A DNA stretch of 64,000 bases from Caldisphaera sp. (GTDB taxonomy: Archaea > Thermoproteota > Thermoprotei_A > Sulfolobales > Acidilobaceae), in contig JBMFKU010000001.1 of the NCBI GenBank assembly GCA_049971805.1, forward strand, positions 50,675 to 114,674, read 5' to 3'. Position 1 is the first letter of the stretch. Each line of letters begins with the position of its first letter. The notes beneath the pieces are model-generated. The model made no database searches, was not told the origin of the DNA, and was given only the letters and a program-made list of their open reading frames with translations. Made by a program: the position numbers and the translations under genes. Positions 4,685 to 64,000 of this stretch are shown here, in pieces.

Positions 4685-5879
4685 TGTCTATCACCTTGGG
4701 AATATCATTTATTGATATTAAAGATACATCAATACCTTTTTTAGATAAATAGAAATAGGCCTTATAGCTATTTGTAGCAACGCTTAATCCCTTATATCCA
4801 AATGGGCTTACTATTAAGCAGGTATCTGCTATTAAATTAACATTGTGATCTTTAAGAATTTTTAAAGCATTGCTTTCTATTTTTTGTATTTCACTCCTGG
4901 ATAAAGTTACAACAATTTTTACATCATATTTTTTATTTGTCTTTTTTAATATATTTGCCAATTTATATAAATCTTCTGCAGACGAATGGGGACATCCTAA
5001 ATAAATTACTTCTGGTTTTTTGTTTGGACTTAGTTCCTCTTTCCTCTTTTCTATTTCTTTATAATCTATTTTAACTTCTTTTAAAATTTTTTTTCCGAGC
5101 TTTTCAGGGGTAATTTTATCAATATAAACCATAGCAATATTGCCTGATGCACCTAATGATGCAAAAAATTCTTTCATGGCTAGTTTATCCAATGTTTCAT
5201 TTATAAATGGAGGCTTATCGCTATCATGAATTTTGCTTAAGATTTCGCCAAATACGCCTGCTCTGACTTCATCTATATTGTAATTATAAGGCTTCTCTAT
5301 AACGTATTTTATTTCAGGTATTCTGTTTTCATTAATATGAAGGCCATAATAATATATTTTGCCAGTTATTGCTGCCATTAATGAAATTGGACCTCCTTCT
5401 CTGTTCGTTCTAAGCCCTAAAATGCTATTCGCATATACAACTGCATTAGACTCTCCCCAAGCGACGCTATTACCAATTTTTAAATTTTTAATATTTGGTA
5501 AATCATACGGTGTACAAGATAAGGTCAAATCGGCGCCCATTTTGTGTAATGATTTTAGTATTTCATTTTGATTGTTAATATAGTTCAAATCTATTTTGGT
5601 GTAAGGAATAGCCTTATAATCTTCCATATCATATCCTATTGGATTAACTGTAGAAGGCACAGAAAATCTAACACCTGAATCTGCAAACATCTTAATCAAT
5701 TTTCTTCCTGGATCTCCAATGTTGCTATAAGAAACACCTGAAATATGAGCATGAGATATATCAATTAATTTTTCTGCTTCTAGAGAATCTCCCACGCTAA
5801 CAATGACTTGCAAAGCCTTCGCCTTTGCCCAACCTTCTTCTCCATTTATTATCTTTTCTTCGTCTTTTGTTAGGTACAT
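4677..5879 (-). CDS. Aconitase X catalytic (large) subunit, DUF521; probable phosphomevalonate dehydratase large subunit
   Basis: MYLTKDEEKIINGEEG, AHISGVSY, SCTPY, WGESNAVVYANSILGLRTNREGG, GCPH, DTCLIVSP. Confidence 0.9.
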   Translation of the reverse strand: MYLTKDEEKIINGEEGWAKAKALQVIVSVGDSLEAEKLIDISHAHISGVSYSNIGDPGRKLIKMFADSGVRFSVPSTVNPIGYDMEDYKAIPYTKIDLNYINNQNEILKSLHKMGADLTLSCTPYDLPNIKNLKIGNSVAWGESNAVVYANSILGLRTNREGGPISLMAAITGKIYYYGLHINENRIPEIKYVIEKPYNYNIDEVRAGVFGEILSKIHDSDKPPFINETLDKLAMKEFFASLGASGNIAMVYIDKITPEKLGKKILKEVKIDYKEIEKRKEELSPNKKPEVIYLGCPHSSAEDLYKLANILKKTNKKYDVKIVVTLSRSEIQKIESNALKILKDHNVNLIADTCLIVSPFGYKGLSVATNSYKAYFYLSKKGIDVSLISINDIPKVIDND

Positions 5880-7388: not shown

Positions 7389-8093
7389 ATGGTAAATACG
7401 GTTCATATATTGGCAAATAAAGTTCCTAAAAAAATGTTGATAACAGGTGATCCCGATAGAATTAAGTTGATAGCAAAGTTGTTAAATGATTTAACTTTGA
7501 TAAATAGCAACAGGGGTTTCTATACTTATGCAGGAACTTATAATAAAGAAGAAATTGGATTAGCCTCTCATGGAATTGGAGGCCCAAGTGTTGCAATTGT
7601 TTTGGAAGAGCTTATATCATTGGGAGCAGAGTACATTATTAGATTAGGTACCATAGGTAGCTTATTTGATGAAATAAATGTTGGAGACGTTATTATACCT
7701 AATGGCGTAGCATATTTAGGAAACGCGTCTGCTCTAGGGCTGTATTTTAGTAATATATGCTATCCATCATCCCCAGATGCAAATTTATCTCAAAATTTAT
7801 TAAAAAATGCTGTAAACAATGGATTTAAAGTTCATAGAGGTATTATTTTTTCAAGCGATTCATTTTATGCAGAAGTTGAAATTTTAGAAAAATTAAAGAA
7901 ACTAAATATTATTGGAGTTGAGATGGAATGTGCTACATTATTAGCCTTGTCAAATTTAAGGGGAATAAAGTCATCTTGTTTTTTAATAGTATCTAATAAA
8001 GCTTATGATAAATTTAAAAAAGAATTTTACATACAGGAAGAAGCTATATTAAATGCTGCTAGAACAATACTAGATGTATTAAGTAAAAATTAA
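7389..8093 (+). CDS. Purine nucleoside phosphorylase (PNP/UDP family)
   Basis: GDPDRI, NRGFYTYAG, SHGIGGPS, IRLGTIGS, SSDSFY, VEMECA. Confidence 0.9.
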   Translation: MVNTVHILANKVPKKMLITGDPDRIKLIAKLLNDLTLINSNRGFYTYAGTYNKEEIGLASHGIGGPSVAIVLEELISLGAEYIIRLGTIGSLFDEINVGDVIIPNGVAYLGNASALGLYFSNICYPSSPDANLSQNLLKNAVNNGFKVHRGIIFSSDSFYAEVEILEKLKKLNIIGVEMECATLLALSNLRGIKSSCFLIVSNKAYDKFKKEFYIQEEAILNAARTILDVLSKN

Positions 8094-8160
8094 TATGTTT
8101 GCAATATATAGATAAGTATTTTAAATCTAGCAATAAATTTAATTTAAGGAGGTAATAGAT

Positions 8161-9342
8161 ATGAGCGCAAGATCAAGAGCATTAATATTTACGTCTATAG
8201 GACACTTCCTTAATGATAGCTTTCTGGTTACGTTTTCAATTCTAATAACATATTATCTAGACATGAAAATCTCACCATTATTTTTAGGAACTATGGGATC
8301 ATTGATTAGTATACTATCAGGTTTAACAAGTATATGGGTTGGTAGAGAGGCAGATAAAGAAGGTAATCATAATAGGTTAATGCTTGCAGGCTTCATTCTT
8401 ATTGGTCTATCAAGTCTTTTATATGCATCATCATTTTCTTACCATGAATTTACACTAACTTTAATAGCATTGGCATCTATATCATTAGGCATGGGCCTAT
8501 CATTTTATCACCCTCTAGGTGGTTCTATACTACAACATATATATGATATTAAAGAATCACCAAGAGCCTTAGGTATTAATGGATCCTTTGGTAGTATTGG
8601 TAGAGCAATATTTCCTGTAGTTTTAGTCTTTGTAATACATGCTTTGGGAGCTCCTCTCGGACTCTATTTAATTGGTATATATACTTTCATCTTATCTATA
8701 ATAATTTATAGCGGATTAAAGCCAATTAATATACAAGTTGAAATTAAAAATAATAATAAAGAATCAAACAAGGTTTCTTTATCATCTTTTTACTATGTCT
8801 TGATACCTTTAAGCATTGTGGTATTTTTAAGGGCTATGTTTATTTCAGGGGTTCAAACTTATGCACCTACATATTTAGAATTTCTATATAAATCAAAGTT
8901 ATTAATGAGCATAATATTAACTGTTTCCTATGCTACTGCAATATTTGGACAACCTTATTTCGGCCGTTTAACATCAAACATAGGAGGAAGAAGTGTTGTA
9001 TTTATAACTACAATATTTTCCACTCTCTTTTATATATTATTTTTATTTATTAAAAATGAAACATTATCTATAATAATGTTTGCAGTCTTTTCGTTTTTCG
9101 CTTTTAGTGGTTTCCCAAATTTGTTAGGTTATGTAGGTCAAATTGTTGATAAAAGTGTTTTTGCCCAAGCCAACTCATTGATTTGGGGGGTAAGTAATAC
9201 TATAGGAGGGGCTATTGGTATATTTTTAGGAGGCTATATTTTACAAATAATAGGATTAGAAAATACTATGATAACTTTCATGATATTAGCGTTAATCTCA
9301 ACTGCGCTATTACCAATAATTCCAAAAAAAAGGAAGAAATAA
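8161..9342 (+). CDS. MFS transporter
   Basis: About 12 hydrophobic segments; GHFLND, SFYHPLG, ALGINGSFGSIGR motifs. Confidence 0.85.
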   Translation: MSARSRALIFTSIGHFLNDSFLVTFSILITYYLDMKISPLFLGTMGSLISILSGLTSIWVGREADKEGNHNRLMLAGFILIGLSSLLYASSFSYHEFTLTLIALASISLGMGLSFYHPLGGSILQHIYDIKESPRALGINGSFGSIGRAIFPVVLVFVIHALGAPLGLYLIGIYTFILSIIIYSGLKPINIQVEIKNNNKESNKVSLSSFYYVLIPLSIVVFLRAMFISGVQTYAPTYLEFLYKSKLLMSIILTVSYATAIFGQPYFGRLTSNIGGRSVVFITTIFSTLFYILFLFIKNETLSIIMFAVFSFFAFSGFPNLLGYVGQIVDKSVFAQANSLIWGVSNTIGGAIGIFLGGYILQIIGLENTMITFMILALISTALLPIIPKKRKK

Positions 9343-49350: not shown

Positions 49351-51072
49351 GTGATTATGGGAAGAATAACTGGTGGTGAAGTTATAAAGCGCTTGTTGGT
49401 TAATGAAGGTATTGATTACGTTTTTGGAGTTCCTGGAGATCAGTTATATCCATTATTAGATGCTTTTTATGACAAAAAAATAAAATTCATTACTTTTCAT
49501 CATGAAGCTGCTGCAGCCCATGCAGCTGATGGATATGCAAGAATAACAGGAAAGCCTGGAGTTGTTATAGCAACTGTTGGTCCTGGCGCAGCAAATTTGA
49601 TAGGAGGAGTTTATCCTGCTTTTGCTGAAGGTATACCAATGGTTATAATAACAGCTCAAAATCAATCATGGAAATCATATCCAGATCATGGATCGATGCA
49701 AGCATTAGATCAAATTAATTTGTTAAAGCCTGTAACAAAATGGAACGCCTATGTTAGCCAGTGGAATAGAATACCTGAATTATTTTACTGGGCTTTTAGG
49801 AAAGCTCTAACTGGTAGACCAGGACCTGTTCATCTAGATGTTGCAGTAGATGTTTTATATCAAACAGGAGATGAAAACAATGTAACGATATTAAAACCAG
49901 AAAATTATAGACCATTAAGTGGTCCTTCAGGAAATCCGAATTTAATAGATGAAGCAGCGAGGCTTTTAACAAAAGCAAAAATGCCTTTAATTCATTTAGG
50001 TGGTGGGATTTTAAGATCTAATGCAACAGAAGAAGCTCAAATGCTTGCTGATTATCTGAAAGCCATTGTTACTACATCAATTGGAGGTAGAGGTAGTATA
50101 CCAGAAGATTATCCATCGATTCTTCTTCCATCATTACCAGGTGCTTTAGAAGCTCAATCAGAGGCTGACGTAATTTTAATTGCCGGTTCAAGATTAGGAG
50201 ATCTGGACTATTGGGGAAAACAACCAGCTTGGGGTGATTTTAAAGATCAAAAGACAATTCATATAGATATTACTGGAGAAGACATAGGATTAAATAGACC
50301 TGTAGAAGTAGGTATAGTTGGAGACTTAAAAATAGTTTTAAGTCAATTATTAGAAGCTGTTAAGAAATATAGTCCGCCTAGAAAAGACTATCCAGAAAAG
50401 CTTGAAAAATACAAAGAATCTGAAAGGGAATACCTAAAGTCGATGGAAGATTTATCTTATTCCAATTCTATTCCAATTCATCCCTTAAGAGTTGTCAGAG
50501 AAGCCAGAGAGTTTTTCCCAAAGGATTCAATAACCATAATAGATGGAGGAAATACAACAGTTTGGGCTTCATATTTAAACAGAATTTATATGCCTAGAAC
50601 TTATTTAAGCACTGCTAGCGGAGATTCTGGTCATCTCGGATCAGGAATTTCATTTTCGATAGCAGCAAAGCTAACAAACCCGGATAAATATGTTTATGCA
50701 ATAACAGGAGATGGTGCCTTTGGATTTCATGTAGCCGAGTTAGAAACAGCTTGCAGAGAGAATTTGCAAATTACTATTTTGGTTTTAAATGATAGCTCAT
50801 GGGGAATGATCAAAGCTGGCCAAACCCTATATTACAGTAAAAGGCATGTGGGAGTTGATTTCTCCGAAATAAGATATGATTTGATAGCTGAAGCCATGGG
50901 ATGCCATGGAGAATATGTAACTAAACCAGAAGATATAAAACCTGCATTAAGAAGGTCTATAGATTCTAAGAAGACATCAGTAATTAATGTTATTGTAGAT
51001 AAAAATGCGATTCCTCCTCATTTCGAAATTTTAGCCGGTATTTGGTTAGAGGGTGTTGAAATGCCTTCTTAA
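49351..51072 (+). CDS. Thiamine-pyrophosphate-binding enzyme (acetolactate synthase-like decarboxylase or lyase)
   Basis: FGVPG, HHEAAAAHAADG, TVGPGAAN, GRPGPVHLD, GDGAFGF...LNDSSWG. Confidence 0.9.
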   Translation: MIMGRITGGEVIKRLLVNEGIDYVFGVPGDQLYPLLDAFYDKKIKFITFHHEAAAAHAADGYARITGKPGVVIATVGPGAANLIGGVYPAFAEGIPMVIITAQNQSWKSYPDHGSMQALDQINLLKPVTKWNAYVSQWNRIPELFYWAFRKALTGRPGPVHLDVAVDVLYQTGDENNVTILKPENYRPLSGPSGNPNLIDEAARLLTKAKMPLIHLGGGILRSNATEEAQMLADYLKAIVTTSIGGRGSIPEDYPSILLPSLPGALEAQSEADVILIAGSRLGDLDYWGKQPAWGDFKDQKTIHIDITGEDIGLNRPVEVGIVGDLKIVLSQLLEAVKKYSPPRKDYPEKLEKYKESEREYLKSMEDLSYSNSIPIHPLRVVREAREFFPKDSITIIDGGNTTVWASYLNRIYMPRTYLSTASGDSGHLGSGISFSIAAKLTNPDKYVYAITGDGAFGFHVAELETACRENLQITILVLNDSSWGMIKAGQTLYYSKRHVGVDFSEIRYDLIAEAMGCHGEYVTKPEDIKPALRRSIDSKKTSVINVIVDKNAIPPHFEILAGIWLEGVEMPS

Positions 51073-56861: not shown

Positions 56862-59279
56862 ATGTCTGAATCTGTAAAGGGCACCGAAAAAAGCCTTGAT
56901 GATTATGTAAAAGAATTTGGAGCTGATATGGACCACGGCCTTTCATCTGAGGAAGTGAAAAGGAGACAGCAGAAGTATGGATTCAATGAAGTGACTGAAA
57001 AGAAAGAATCATCAATAAAAAGATTTGCCAAAAAGTTCTGGGGACTTACTTCATGGATGCTAGAAGTAACTATGGTTCTCACACTAGTTCTTCATAAATT
57101 TTTAGATTTTTACCTAGTGACAGGACTTCTAATTTTAAACGTCTTATTAGGATATGTACAGGAAGAAAGGGCAAATCGTGCATTGGAGGCTCTTAAACAA
57201 AGGCTTCACATAAATGCTAGAACTTTAAGGGATAGTAAATGGATTCTTGTGCCTGCTAGGGAATTAGTTCCTGGTGATATAATTAGATTAAGAGCAGGAG
57301 ACGTTGTACCTGCTGACACAATAATGTTTAAAGGCGAGCTTGAGGTTGATCAATCTGCCCTTACAGGCGAATCATTAACTGTCACAAGAGGGCCAAAGGA
57401 GGCAATTTACTCAGGCTCAGTGATAAAAAGAGGTGAAGGAACAGGAATTGTAGTAGCAACGGGTTCAAAGACTTATTTTGGCAAGACAACAGAACTTGTA
57501 AATATTGCCAGACCAAAGCTTCACATGGAAGAGGTTATAGGACAGGTAGTTAAATGGCTTTTAATTATGGTAGTTACATTTCTTGCTGGAGCTGCTATAT
57601 ATTCAACAATCTTCATGAAGACAAGTTATCTTAGCCTTCTTGAACTATCACTTGTTTTATTAGTATCAGCTATACCAGTTGCTTTACCAGCAATGTTCAC
57701 AATAACTATGGCTTTAGGTTCGATTGAGCTCTCTAAGAAGGGAGTCCTAGTAACACGTCTATCAGCTTCTGAGGATGCAGCTTCTATGGACACATTGTGT
57801 GCTGACAAAACCGGAACGATAACTCTTAACATGATATCAGTAGCAGAGGTAGTTCCGGTTGACAGTTACAGCAAAGAACAAGTCATTACATTTGGAGCTT
57901 TAGCTTCGGAAGAAGCTAACAAAGATCCAATAGATATGGCCTTTATTCAAGAAGCGAAAGAAAGAAATATAGATCTCAAAAGTTATAAAGTTCTGAACTT
58001 CGTACCTTTTGACCCTAGCACAAGAAGGACTGAAGCAACAGTGCAATATAACGAGAAAAAAGTCCAGATAATGAAAGGGGCTGTAAACGTAATAATAAAA
58101 CTTTGTAGCTTAGACGAGCAAACTAAGAAAAAAGTAGAAGATGCTATGAAAGATATGGCAGAAAAAGGCTACAGAAGCCTTGGTATTGCAGTTAAGGAGG
58201 ATGATACCATAAAGCTTATTGGTTTAGTAGGCCTCTATGATAAACCTAGACCAGATTCGCAACGTCTAATTAAAGAGTTAAAGAACTTAGGCGTAAGCGT
58301 TAAGATGCTAACCGGAGATGCAAAACCAATAGCTTTGCAGATAGCAAAACAGGTTGAGCTGGGAGAAAATGCCGCTGATATAGCCGAAGTTAAACAGATG
58401 AAAGATGAAGAAAAAGATGAAGTAATTGAAAAGAGCGATGTGTTTGCAGAAGTTTATCCTGAAGACAAATACATGATAGTTAAATCGTTACAAAAGAAAA
58501 AGCATATAGTAGGAATGACTGGAGATGGAGTAAATGACGCACCAGCACTAAAGCAAGCAGAGGTCGGAATAGCTGTTAGTAATGCTACGGATGTAGCAAA
58601 AGCAGCTGCAAGCGTTGTTCTTACTCAACCTGGTCTCATAAATATAGTTGATCTAGTAAAGACCGGTAGAATGATTTATCAGAGAATAGTAACATGGATA
58701 TTTAATAAGGTTGTTAAAACATTTCAGATAGTTGTTTTTACAGTCCTTGCATTGTTCCTATTGAATAGATTTATTGTAAATGCCTTTGACGTACTATTGT
58801 TGCTATTTTTAATAGACTTTGTGACAATCTCGATATCAACAGACAATGTAAGATATTCAAAGACACCTGATAAATGGGACGTTGATTGGCTAGTTAAAGT
58901 ATCTGTATTTATTGGATTAGCAGCTATATTGGAATCGCTGTTTTTTACTTATATAGGAGTGAGGTATTTTGGTCTCTTAAGTAATGTAAACCAGTTGCAC
59001 ACATTTGGCTTTGAAATACTAATGCTCTCAGGAATGTTTACTATATTTGTAGTGAGAGAACGCGGACATTTCTGGGATTCAAGACCAAGCAATGTACTCT
59101 TTGCTTCAATAATAGCTGATATAGCTTTAGCAATTATCATATCAACCTTTGGCATCCCCGGAATAACACCAATTCCTATAATGGATTCTGTAGTACTTTT
59201 GGGACTTTCGATAATTTTCATTCTTGTTATAAATGATTTTGTAAAGATAGCAGTGTTAAAAAGGATAAAAAAGATATAA
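56862..59279 (+). CDS. P-type H+-exporting ATPase (P3A, plasma-membrane type)
   Basis: DQSALTGES, AIPVALP, CADKTGTIT, KGA, MLTGD, TGDGVNDAPALK. Confidence 0.93.
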   Translation: MSESVKGTEKSLDDYVKEFGADMDHGLSSEEVKRRQQKYGFNEVTEKKESSIKRFAKKFWGLTSWMLEVTMVLTLVLHKFLDFYLVTGLLILNVLLGYVQEERANRALEALKQRLHINARTLRDSKWILVPARELVPGDIIRLRAGDVVPADTIMFKGELEVDQSALTGESLTVTRGPKEAIYSGSVIKRGEGTGIVVATGSKTYFGKTTELVNIARPKLHMEEVIGQVVKWLLIMVVTFLAGAAIYSTIFMKTSYLSLLELSLVLLVSAIPVALPAMFTITMALGSIELSKKGVLVTRLSASEDAASMDTLCADKTGTITLNMISVAEVVPVDSYSKEQVITFGALASEEANKDPIDMAFIQEAKERNIDLKSYKVLNFVPFDPSTRRTEATVQYNEKKVQIMKGAVNVIIKLCSLDEQTKKKVEDAMKDMAEKGYRSLGIAVKEDDTIKLIGLVGLYDKPRPDSQRLIKELKNLGVSVKMLTGDAKPIALQIAKQVELGENAADIAEVKQMKDEEKDEVIEKSDVFAEVYPEDKYMIVKSLQKKKHIVGMTGDGVNDAPALKQAEVGIAVSNATDVAKAAASVVLTQPGLINIVDLVKTGRMIYQRIVTWIFNKVVKTFQIVVFTVLALFLLNRFIVNAFDVLLLLFLIDFVTISISTDNVRYSKTPDKWDVDWLVKVSVFIGLAAILESLFFTYIGVRYFGLLSNVNQLHTFGFEILMLSGMFTIFVVRERGHFWDSRPSNVLFASIIADIALAIIISTFGIPGITPIPIMDSVVLLGLSIIFILVINDFVKIAVLKRIKKI

Positions 59280-61087: not shown

Positions 61088-61678
61088 GTGGAATCAAAGA
61101 GCTTTTCATCATTGGGTTATGTTTTAGATCCTAAAATATCAGCATTAATAGTTTGGGATGTTCAAAATATGCTTGTTAACAATATATTTAATAAGGATCA
61201 GTTTTTAGTGAACATAAACAAGCTCATTAATTCTGCCAGAAAGGCAAATATACCAATATTTTATACAAAAATTACCCCATTACCAGAAAGATTTGATTCT
61301 CCTGTAAGGAAATTTATATATTCAAGGTGGGGTAGGTCTTCATGGGGAAATGATCCATCGCTTTATGAATTGGTAGTTAAGCCAGAGAAAAATGAAATAG
61401 TGATAAATAAAAATACTGCAAGTATATTTGTTGGAACAAACTTTGAACTCATGGTAAGAAATGCTGGTATTAAAACATTAGTTTTCACAGGAATATCAAC
61501 GGAAATGGGTGTTGAGTCTAGCGCAAGAGATGCTTTTAATTTAGGCTTCTTCCCAGTTATAGCTGAAGATGCAGTTTCTTCATCTGATAAAGAATCCCAC
61601 GAAAGATCTCTAGCAAACATGAAAAGGATGATGATAGTATTAAGTTCAGATGAGATAACAAAATATTGGAATAAATAA
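61088..61678 (+). CDS. Isochorismatase-family hydrolase (YecD-like)
   Basis: [41 protein letters not shown]. Confidence 0.88.
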
Positions 61679-61682
61679 TAGT

Positions 61683-62435
61683 TTACCTATTTAAAATTTT
61701 TGTACCTATATCTTTACCAACTAATGCATCATAAATTTTTTTACCTTGAATTATTCTAACTTCATTTGCATTTGATTTAAATGCTTTTTTCACCTTGTTT
61801 AAAATCCCACCAGTAACATCAAATCCCTCATTTTTTATTACAGTAATGTTTTGATTTCTATCTAGGGTTTTTATTACATTTCCATTTTCATCATAAATAC
61901 CTTGAACATCTGATGCAAATAATAAACAATCTGCATTTATTATATTTGATATAATTATTGAAAGGTCATCTCCAGAAATAATTTTTCCTTCCTTATAAAA
62001 AATCGCATCTCCAAAAGTAACAGGAATTAAATTGTTTTTAATATCATTTAATATTGGTTCATAGTTGCAGTTTTCTGCTATCTCATTTTTACAAATAGTG
62101 TGGGCTGGATGCAAGGAAACTGGCAAGTTATTTTTTATCATTATATCTATCACGGCCAAACCTAAAGTTATCATAGACTTTTGAATTGTTGAAACACCTA
62201 GTTGGTCAATCCTATCATTATTCCTTTTAATTCTTTCTACTTCATAGTGGCCGAAGCTTCCTCCACCATGAACTATTACTATAACTCCTCCATGTTCTTT
62301 ATAGAATTTATTTAGTTGCATAGTAAACTCTTCTAAAGAATTCCAATCTATAGTTAATGGTATTTTTTTATCTGTTATAAAGCTCCCTCCAAGCTTTATT
62401 ACAATTTTTTTACAAACCATTTTTTCACTCATCAT
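61683..62435 (-). CDS. Isopentenyl phosphate kinase
   Basis: [44 protein letters not shown]. Confidence 0.9.
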
Positions 62436-62468
62436 TATTTGAAAGATATTTAAGCATATTAAAATGTT

Positions 62469-63245
62469 TTATTCTAAACATATTAATTCAGCTATGTTCG
62501 GCAGTCCAGGAACATAAAAACAATTATTGTTAGGAATTAATCCATATATTAAATATGATACAGAATCTGTTATCTTCCTAAATTTATTTAGAGTATCATC
62601 AAAATCATTACTTTCTTTTATTCTTAAAGAAGCCTCTAAAACCGATACCCCCATTAGATGGGTTATAGCTCCGTATACATCATTACCCACTATATCTCTT
62701 ATAATTTGAGGTTTTATAGAAACTATTTTGCTTAATTTAATTTTTATAGTTTTTTTGTTCAATTCAGAACTTTCTTCTTCATTTCTGTAAACAACAGCTT
62801 TTCCGGTAATTGATGAGTACCTTAAAGAATCCATTACTGATGCCCATGAAGGATCATCAATGTTATCAACAATTCTTGTTAGTTCTATTATTTCATTTTC
62901 ATTTAATGTCTCATTATTATATTTTCCCAATGAATAAAGTAATAGAGATGTGGAAACAGCATATAAACCTGAAAAAGTATATCCTTGAGCTTTATTAATT
63001 AATTTTATTTCTGCACAATTTTTAAAGTTCATTCCTTCATTAAGTTTCATCCAAAAATCCTTTATGTAAGAGTTTAATTCTAATGGAAGGTTTTCGATTT
63101 TAATGTTGGTATTTTTACATTCATTTATATTAATTTCGAACTCAACCTCGCTTGTTGGAACAGCTATATAAGGATTTTCTGTATTTGGTATTGGAAACCC
63201 AAGAAAAATCGCAGATGAGTATGATTTGAGTTTCAAAATGATCAT
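62469..63245 (-). CDS. Hypothetical protein, possibly a highly divergent GHMP (mevalonate) kinase
   Basis: Overlaps the MEMO1 stop and lies directly before IPK; only faint GHMP-like spacing; canonical GLGSSAA motif absent. Confidence 0.4.
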   Translation of the reverse strand: MIILKLKSYSSAIFLGFPIPNTENPYIAVPTSEVEFEININECKNTNIKIENLPLELNSYIKDFWMKLNEGMNFKNCAEIKLINKAQGYTFSGLYAVSTSLLLYSLGKYNNETLNENEIIELTRIVDNIDDPSWASVMDSLRYSSITGKAVVYRNEEESSELNKKTIKIKLSKIVSIKPQIIRDIVGNDVYGAITHLMGVSVLEASLRIKESNDFDDTLNKFRKITDSVSYLIYGLIPNNNCFYVPGLPNIAELICLE

Positions 63246-64000
63246 CCTTTTATTAACATGGCTGAAGCATAACCAACTACATAATCTTTTTCCCCTGTAA
63301 CATCTCCAGAGGTTGCATGCTTTAATATCTTAGCCTTAAATCCCAATTTCTTCCCTAATTCTATTAATGCTCCAACAGGTCCTGGACCGCACATAGTTAT
63401 ATCGTTGTTTTCTATAGTTGAGAAAAGACCATCAAGATCCAGTTGAATTATTTTCTGCAAGGCCATTTCATCCTTTTTTACTGTTATATCTTGAGGTTCG
63501 TAGTGATTCATATCACTGCTTGCTATATATATTAAATCAACATCATTTTCCTTCATTATTTTATATAGGGAATTTGCTAGGTCTCTGGAAACTTCCTCAT
63601 TTTGCAATTTTATAACTATTGGAACAATTTTTATATCTTTAAAAATATATTGTAAAAAAGGTATTTGAATTTCTACAGAATGCTCGTATAGGTGAGCTTC
63701 TTCATCAAATGAAAAATACCTTGAGTTTTGAACTATCAATTTTGCTACATCAGAATCTACCTCAACGTCTCCTAGAGGTGTTTGCCAAATACCTTCTTTC
63801 CATATAGAAGCATTTTCACCCAAACCAGTGTGATTAGGGCCTGCTATAATAAATACCTTTGGTTTACCTCCTAATGAGATGTTATAATAGCTGTGAGCAG
63901 CAATTGGTCCGCTATACATATAACCAGCATGAGGAACCATATATGCAATGCTATTTTTATCTCTTTCTTTTGCAACAGGCAATTTACCAGGTCCTAAATT
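63242..64000 (-). CDS. MEMO1-family protein (AmmeMemoRadiSam protein B), 5'-truncated by the window edge
   Basis: PHAGYMYSG, GPNHTG, WQTPLG, EHSVEIQIPFLQ, SSDMNHY, MCGPGP, TSGDVTG, VVGYA; frame is open to base 64000. Confidence 0.93.
   Translation of the reverse strand, partial: NLGPGKLPVAKERDKNSIAYMVPHAGYMYSGPIAAHSYYNISLGGKPKVFIIAGPNHTGLGENASIWKEGIWQTPLGDVEVDSDVAKLIVQNSRYFSFDEEAHLYEHSVEIQIPFLQYIFKDIKIVPIVIKLQNEEVSRDLANSLYKIMKENDVDLIYIASSDMNHYEPQDITVKKDEMALQKIIQLDLDGLFSTIENNDITMCGPGPVGALIELGKKLGFKAKILKHATSGDVTGEKDYVVGYASAMLIKG

Follow-up and report, generated by a model that had tools for sequence, protein, structure and literature searches.

Mevalonate kinase (MVK; EC 2.7.1.36; TIGR00549; PDB 2hfu, 2x7i, 6mdf, 1kkh) is a GHMP-fold enzyme, and in archaea its gene can stand between those for Memo (MEMO1/AmmeMemoRadiSam B) and isopentenyl phosphate kinase (IPK). 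Smit and Mushegian are said to have been the first, in 2000, to link a Memo-like gene to the archaeal mevalonate operon. There are also proteins of this fold that are not kinases, including MBD (mevalonate 3,5-bisphosphate decarboxylase), which is no longer a kinase and puts the ATP pocket to new use for geranylgeranyl diphosphate (GGPP) (PMC9254496), and beta-ribofuranosylaminobenzene-5'-phosphate (beta-RFAP) synthase/ForT (PDB 6yqq, 8ap0), which is ATP-independent and uses phosphoribosyl pyrophosphate (PRPP). Here we analyze 64,000 nucleotides from Caldisphaera sp. (assembly GCA_049971805.1, contig JBMFKU010000001.1, forward-strand positions 50,675 to 114,674; hereafter the window), in which the slot between Memo and IPK is filled by a gene at 62469-63245 whose 258-residue product lacks the GHMP kinase motifs. 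We use X as the name of this protein and of its family. X is very probably a real gene with a GHMP fold derived from MVK that is not the mevalonate kinase of the cell.

The range 61683-64000 holds three co-directional genes, all on the minus strand in the open reading frame (ORF) list:

61683-62435, minus strand: IPK, 250 aa, directly downstream of X (NF040647 IPPK_Arch, 154.7 bits against a cut-off of 120; PF00696)

62436-62468, minus strand: X-IPK spacer, 33 nt, A+T-rich, as read from the sequence

62469-63245, minus strand: gene X, 258 aa, GHMP-fold protein, probably MVK-derived, without kinase motifs; its stop codon (62469-62471) lies within the range

63242-64000, minus strand: 3' part of Memo, 252 codons (PF01875, 255 bits; TIGR04336, 294.8 bits)

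The full-length Memo has 283 aa and extends past the end of the window (L015 2917-3768). The ATG of X (63245-63243) and the TGA stop of Memo (63244-63242) share an ATGA overlap, and this overlap together with the ORFs confirms the arrangement given in a preliminary description of this DNA, namely a 258-aa middle gene overlapping the MEMO1 stop with IPK next to it. An alternative TTG start at 63236, three codons downstream of the ATG, would yield 255 aa and agrees with the N-termini of homologues and with a database copy (P0001); both starts are possible. By eye, the X-IPK spacer contains the TATA-like words TTTAATAT and CTTAAATA, about 20-30 nt ahead of the IPK ATG, which may be a candidate internal archaeal promoter.

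To compare gene order, IPK genes were taken from named genomes and their neighbors classed with four hidden Markov models (HMMs). About 40 Nitrososphaeria loci (Nitrosopumilus, Nitrososphaera, Nitrosotalea, Nitrosotenuis) read Memo-MVK-IPK or MVK-IPK, which bears out the archaeal order MEMO1-mevalonate kinase-IPK on which the preliminary description had relied. The order Memo-X-IPK is found in Acidilobaceae, Aeropyrum, Thermodiscus, Pyrodictiaceae, several Desulfurococcales metagenome-assembled genomes (MAGs), one Methanomethylicus MAG, further Thermoprotei and a Sulfolobaceae-like family. Two genomes, a distant one of 1.2 Mb and a Sulfolobaceae-like one of 2.7 Mb, carry the full cluster L13-S9-S2-Memo-X-IPK-IDI2(FMN_dh)-polyprenyl synthase. 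X thus lies between Memo and IPK as MVK does elsewhere, making the two positional orthologs, and from gene order it appears to occupy the ancestral mvk slot of an S2-Memo-[MVK]-IPK-IDI2-GGPPS cluster in which the sister class Nitrososphaeria has a true MVK.

The relationship of X to GHMP proteins is detectable only by profile-profile and structure comparison. Searches of Pfam and NCBIfam with X gave zero matches at E<=1; PF00288 does not match X and matches one of 52 family members (E 0.027), and TIGR00549 (cut-off 163 bits) does not match X. An AlphaFold2 model built from a 52-sequence alignment (predicted local distance difference test score, pLDDT, 97.6; predicted template modeling score, pTM, 0.94) has the two-domain GHMP architecture, with a predicted N-terminal beta/alpha domain containing the left-handed beta-alpha-beta unit and a C-terminal domain. 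The comparison with GHMP kinases proposed in the preliminary description places the model nearest to MVKs (Foldseek; VIA, Z 14-16.7). Decarboxylases of the DMD/PMD/MBD branch also match by Foldseek, with a lower Z in VIA (about 12.7), and a search of the PDB with the family profile (A2) returned no decarboxylase at E<=10. In that search the best match was the MVK 2x7i (E 2.8e-4), the sole significant PDB protein, and hhalign of the A2 profile against 31 MVKs of the order gave a probability of 95.8% (E 7.6e-9, 215 columns). Beta-RFAP synthase/ForT scores below MVKs against X.

Five weaker genome matches of the X profile coincide in position with canonical MVK genes, for example G030:C1:201008-201670 within the MVK at G030:C1:200894-201718. 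Plain HMMER searches of the seven GHMP paralogues of the window's genome with the X profile gave nothing significant. In a maximum-likelihood phylogeny that combined X with MVKs from Thermoprotei and Nitrososphaeria and with four further GHMP paralogues, X forms a single clade (Shimodaira-Hasegawa-like approximate likelihood ratio test, SH-aLRT, 94) on a stem of 1.82 substitutions. The X profile also matched centrin/calmodulin (residues 95-130, E 0.04-2), which we judged to be helix-composition noise.

We mapped X onto MVK by profile alignment, counting residues over 52 members plus further loci and taking residue roles from the Leishmania major MVK (LmMK) paper (PMC1851959). X is about 60-70 residues shorter than MVK. 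Where MVK has the catalytic Lys of motif I (PxKxxLxGEHxV; rat K13), X has P, S or A, and no member has Lys. The GEH triplet reads G16-[VLIF]-P18, with Pro in 47/52. Motif II (PxGSGLGSSAA, the GLGSSAA P-loop) is replaced by G/S-L-Y-A-x-x-T, in which Tyr95 (49/52) takes the place of the Mg-ligand Ser (rat S146), and the Gly-rich motif III reads P246-G/S-L-P. The Ser201 equivalent is variable; the position of the catalytic Asp (rat D204) is acidic in 35/52 and K, S or R in Sulfolobaceae-like forms. Of the catalytic Lys/Asp pair and the Ser/Glu Mg ligands of MVK, X retains just the Glu193 position, where it has Asp127 (acidic in 47/52). These comparisons uphold the earlier statement that X lacks GEH, GLGSSAA and the Gly-rich motif III, both in its own sequence and in the family alignment; the faint echoes it had listed are also present (SSAIFLG at 10-16, GYTFSGLYAVSTS at 88-100 and SVMDS at 136-140).

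Other positions have been kept or newly fixed. The Tyr that hydrogen-bonds the mevalonate carboxylate (LmMK Tyr167, rat Tyr216) aligns with Tyr153 of X (45/52, the rest W, F or C), and the residue after it is Arg154 in 52/52, one position off the register of the carboxylate-binding LmMK Arg169. Newly fixed residues are N24 (51/52), R142 (48/52), E157 and E158 (42/52 each), H196 (H/K/R) and G199 (51/52), with N24, R142, E157 and E158 predicted to fall on elements of the former active-site cleft. As aligned, X has lost the ATP and phosphoryl-transfer apparatus of MVK while retaining positions of its substrate pocket.

This residue pattern bears on whether X could still be a kinase, be it of mevalonate or of some other small alcohol or acid, whose site is rewired or whose phosphoryl donor is unusual. 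The predicted full GHMP fold, the acids at the Glu193 and catalytic Asp positions and the retained substrate Tyr would be compatible with such an activity. So would the Methanomethylicus-type forms of 267-285 aa (L110, from the Methanomethylicus MAG, and L082, L083 and L086, from other distant Thermoproteota), in which motif I still has G-E-A and motif III survives as a GGKxxxAG remnant. However, the motif I Lys is found in no member, throughout the family neither the Gly/Ser P-loop nor motif III is present, Sulfolobaceae-like members have K, S or R at the catalytic Asp position, and the Pro now at the GEH His position is the very substitution that left a His-to-Pro mutant of MVK with no detectable activity (PMC1851959). 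A canonical MVK is moreover present in nearly every carrier examined, and X matches neither PF00288 nor TIGR00549. We consider a catalytically rewired kinase unlikely. The Methanomethylicus-type members also lack the P-loop and, being less degenerate, fit a stepwise decay of a kinase with intermediate stages.

A HMMER search for X in 1.84 billion cluster representatives (50% identity) returned 58 matches at E<=0.001 and 37 at E<=1e-10, nearly all 245-285 aa long; at least one of the 58 is spurious. One match of 1131 aa (P0049), considered as a fused form of X, was rejected as an Ig/cadherin-repeat protein matched spuriously, and no fused form occurred among HMMER matches of any length. The closest named homologue, Calag_0847 of Caldisphaera lagunensis, is 62% identical, and all named database copies examined are called "hypothetical protein." Searches for literature on the family (Memo/IPK/MVK context, GHMP pseudokinase, AmmeMemoRadiSam) found none, and we found no Pfam or NCBIfam model for X and no solved structure above 16% identity. 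For a survey of the phylum, a 401-genome sample was searched with the X profile, and families of the window's order were given f numbers. Strong matches occurred in every sampled genome of f1 (12/12), f3 (5/5), the Sulfolobaceae-like f4 (15/15) and f7 (3/3), and few or none in the Desulfurococcaceae-like f2 (3/16) and in f6 (0/3). The survey total of 94 X matches is an overestimate, as some weak ones are canonical MVKs.

X is a real gene and not a chance frame, because dozens of homologous clusters exist and its position is conserved across the order and beyond. Identity between same-genus orthologs is 62% for X, 57% for IPK and 77% for Memo, and at the family level 30-37% for X and 33-40% for IPK; X thus diverges at about the rate of the neighboring IPK, which argues for purifying selection. 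Across the 30 loci examined the reading frame is uninterrupted. One same-genus copy, the ortholog L020 (G205:C60:1379-2143) from a draft genome, has one in-frame TAA within the match, which could be a sequencing error or a broken copy. The loss of every kinase motif and the failure to find X in one family of the order might be read as the decay of an mvk remnant, or as a chance ORF without function. That explanation is effectively refuted by the intact frames (the single TAA aside), by dozens of 50%-identity clusters that share length and signature (R154 and N24 among it), by the high pLDDT and IPK-like divergence, and by retention from Acidilobaceae to the Methanomethylicus MAG.

The preliminary description had pointed out that the AcnX route needs mevalonate 5-phosphate, implying that X must supply it, and had suggested looking for a canonical mvk elsewhere. 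The assembly (1.52 Mb, 96.6% complete) contains one on contig 15 (G000:C15:16858-17844), encoding 328 aa, starting ...GKIILFGEH... and scoring 241.4-241.6 bits against TIGR00549. It is among seven GHMP_kinases_N matches in the assembly, to which X does not belong and which NCBIfam models name as galactokinase, mevalonate kinase, homoserine kinase, archaeal shikimate kinase, two beta-RFAP-synthase-like proteins and one pantoate-kinase-like protein. The window itself carries the following gene:

4701-5879, minus strand: AcnX-family gene, phosphomevalonate dehydratase large-subunit type (PF04412, 389 bits; G000:C1:55375-56553)

The genome also has two UbiD homologues, and diphosphomevalonate decarboxylase (DMD, TIGR01240) was not found in it, a gene content that fits the archaeal-type mevalonate route. 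Since a normal MVK elsewhere supplies the AcnX route, X is not needed for the mevalonate 5-phosphate step, and the implied requirement falls away. The same holds more widely: a canonical MVK is present in 78/81 genomes of the order and stands at another locus in 5/5 distant X carriers checked. The preliminary description had offered three options for X, of which the pseudo-kinase or extremely diverged GHMP protein is supported by the fold and the 95.8% MVK profile match. The non-orthologous replacement is rejected given the GHMP fold and the canonical mvk elsewhere, and the rewired kinase is unlikely for the reasons above. As grounds for abandoning its proposal it had named a canonical mvk elsewhere combined with a non-GHMP fold and no activity on pathway intermediates; the first was found, but the fold is GHMP.

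The canonical mvk has its own neighborhood. It begins (L016 6859-7845, minus strand) within the 3' end of a 496-aa gene (7829-9319, minus strand), with a 17-nt overlap, and this upstream gene has a PterinBD-DUF4346 domain; mvk in this genome is thus coupled not to isoprenoid genes but to a gene related to pterins. Two of the GHMP paralogues resemble beta-RFAP synthase (G000:C2:62320-63249 and G000:C7:21877-22836, both plus strand) in a non-methanogen host, with NF040726 scores of 86 and 159 bits, both under the cut-off of 328. They match PF00288, whereas X does not, and they may have a role in a methanopterin-like or sulfopterin-type cofactor pathway.

Lineages in which X was not found, and an archaeal list of essential genes, bear on how central its role could be. 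Desulfurococcaceae-like genomes in which X went undetected keep MVK, Memo and IPK. In the f2 loci without detected X (L170-L173), (S9-)S2-Memo is followed by a putative IDI2-like ORF of about 375 aa, and IPK stands alone elsewhere in all five genomes examined (L169-L173: G118, G184, G046, G003, G149). The pattern looks as if X and IPK had been removed jointly and IPK alone retained. The essential-gene list of Sulfolobus islandicus M.16.4 includes M164_2057-2060 (L13, S9, RpoN, S2) and then M164_2064-2066 (IDI2, GGPPS, glycosyltransferase); the three genes between S2 and IDI2, M164_2061-2063, are missing from it although the genes on either side are essential (PMC6249222 Suppl. Data 4). By the gene order of the Sulfolobaceae-like genome, these three would be Memo, X and IPK. 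MVK of S. islandicus (M164_1769) is in the class "unassigned" (PMC6249222). The failure to find X in Desulfurococcaceae-like genomes that keep Memo, IPK and MVK, together with the gap in the essential-gene list, suggests an accessory rather than a core role.

We therefore favor, with a probability of roughly 0.4, a reading in which X is a ligand-binding pseudo-kinase (a sensor, regulator or carrier) accessory to the Memo/IPK module. X would be a functional, vertically inherited descendant of MVK left in the ancestral mvk slot, with phosphorylation carried out by the second, canonical MVK encoded elsewhere. X itself would no longer phosphorylate mevalonate and would still bind a small anionic pathway ligand in the old cleft: mevalonate, 5-phosphomevalonate, anhydromevalonate phosphate or a prenyl phosphate. 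Binding of such a ligand is suggested because the best-conserved polar residues align to the former active-site cleft. X would then act without ATP as a non-essential factor of the module. MBD offers a conceptual precedent, likewise a mevalonate-pathway GHMP fold without kinase or ATP-binding function, in its case with the pocket reused for a prenyl diphosphate (PMC9254496); by analogy it could serve equally as a precedent for X as a new enzyme.

Several points weigh against the ligand-binding pseudo-kinase. Its ligand and its partner are both hypothetical, and the clustering of conserved residues around the old cleft comes from the alignment rather than from measured distances. The acid at the Glu193 position and the two arginines would fit a catalytic site too, which favors a new enzyme. 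M164_2062 is equated with X by synteny only, and genes left off the essential list take in those classed as "unassigned." The case for descent from MVK in particular is built on best-hit rank, profile matches and gene position, as the tree, subject to long-branch attraction, does not place X relative to MVK or other GHMP kinases; it leaves both a duplication inside Thermoproteota and an earlier origin possible.

The main rival reading, possible if doubtful, is that X is instead a new enzyme that works without ATP on an acid or phosphate derived from mevalonate and is built on the old MVK substrate pocket, much as MBD arose from an ATP-dependent decarboxylase; R142, R154, Y95, Y153, D127 and E157/E158 would then make up the new catalytic site. 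The strongest conservation in X does appear to lie at residues aligned with the MVK active site, including an invariant Arg and a conserved acid, and X has kept its place in an isoprenoid operon across phylogenetically deep distances. GHMP folds have repeatedly turned non-kinase, as in MBD (PMC9254496) and in beta-RFAP synthase/ForT, which is also among the structural matches of X. Yet all steps of the archaeal-type route already have an enzyme assigned in this genome (MVK, AcnX, UbiD homologues, IPK), and the data point to no candidate reaction. X also occurs both in AcnX-route lineages and in the Sulfolobaceae-like family, was not found in Desulfurococcaceae-like genomes that retain the rest of the pathway, and is apparently not essential in S. 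islandicus.

A purely structural role, in which X would serve Memo, IPK or MVK as a scaffold or a chaperone-like subunit without a small-molecule ligand, seems improbable. It would suit the way the gene is packed tightly against those for Memo and IPK, often overlapping, and pseudo-enzymes often pair with active relatives. Against it, the most conserved residues appear to align to former active-site elements and not to a new surface, and Desulfurococcaceae-like genomes retain Memo and IPK where X was not found. Two uncontrolled runs of complex prediction with Memo, IPK and X, each on its own alignment, scored 0.00 and have no bearing on binding either way.

Elsewhere in the window, an isochorismatase-family gene (61088-61678, plus strand; PF00857, E 9e-41) is convergent with IPK, with stop codons 4 nt apart, and an 805-aa ORF at 56862-59279 (plus strand) has the DKTGT motif typical of P-type ATPases, as read by eye from the translation.

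X is best described as a new, unannotated GHMP subfamily, an MVK-derived pseudo-kinase or neo-enzyme that should not be annotated as mevalonate kinase, and it stands as a warning for automated pathway reconstruction based on gene position. It offers a clear example from nature of an enzyme that became a pseudo-enzyme, or a new enzyme, in place, with its original job passing to a paralogue elsewhere. With the AcnX and UbiD steps found, the archaeal mevalonate pathway usually counts as solved, yet the core operon S2-Memo-MVK-IPK-IDI2-GGPPS has two proteins of unknown role in a large archaeal group, Memo and X. Tentatively, X may be an unrecognized ATP-independent enzyme or a dedicated metabolite sensor of isoprenoid precursor metabolism, working on a mevalonate-derived acid or phosphate across Thermoprotei and Methanomethylicia. 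If so, a core archaeal mevalonate operon would hide an uncharacterized activity, possibly working with the equally unexplained Memo. By synteny, X appears to be present in the Sulfolobaceae-like family, which should include the genetically tractable Sulfolobus, making its role directly testable. Should X turn out to have a regulatory role or a new activity, it would matter for the way Thermoprotei control their flux of lipid precursors.

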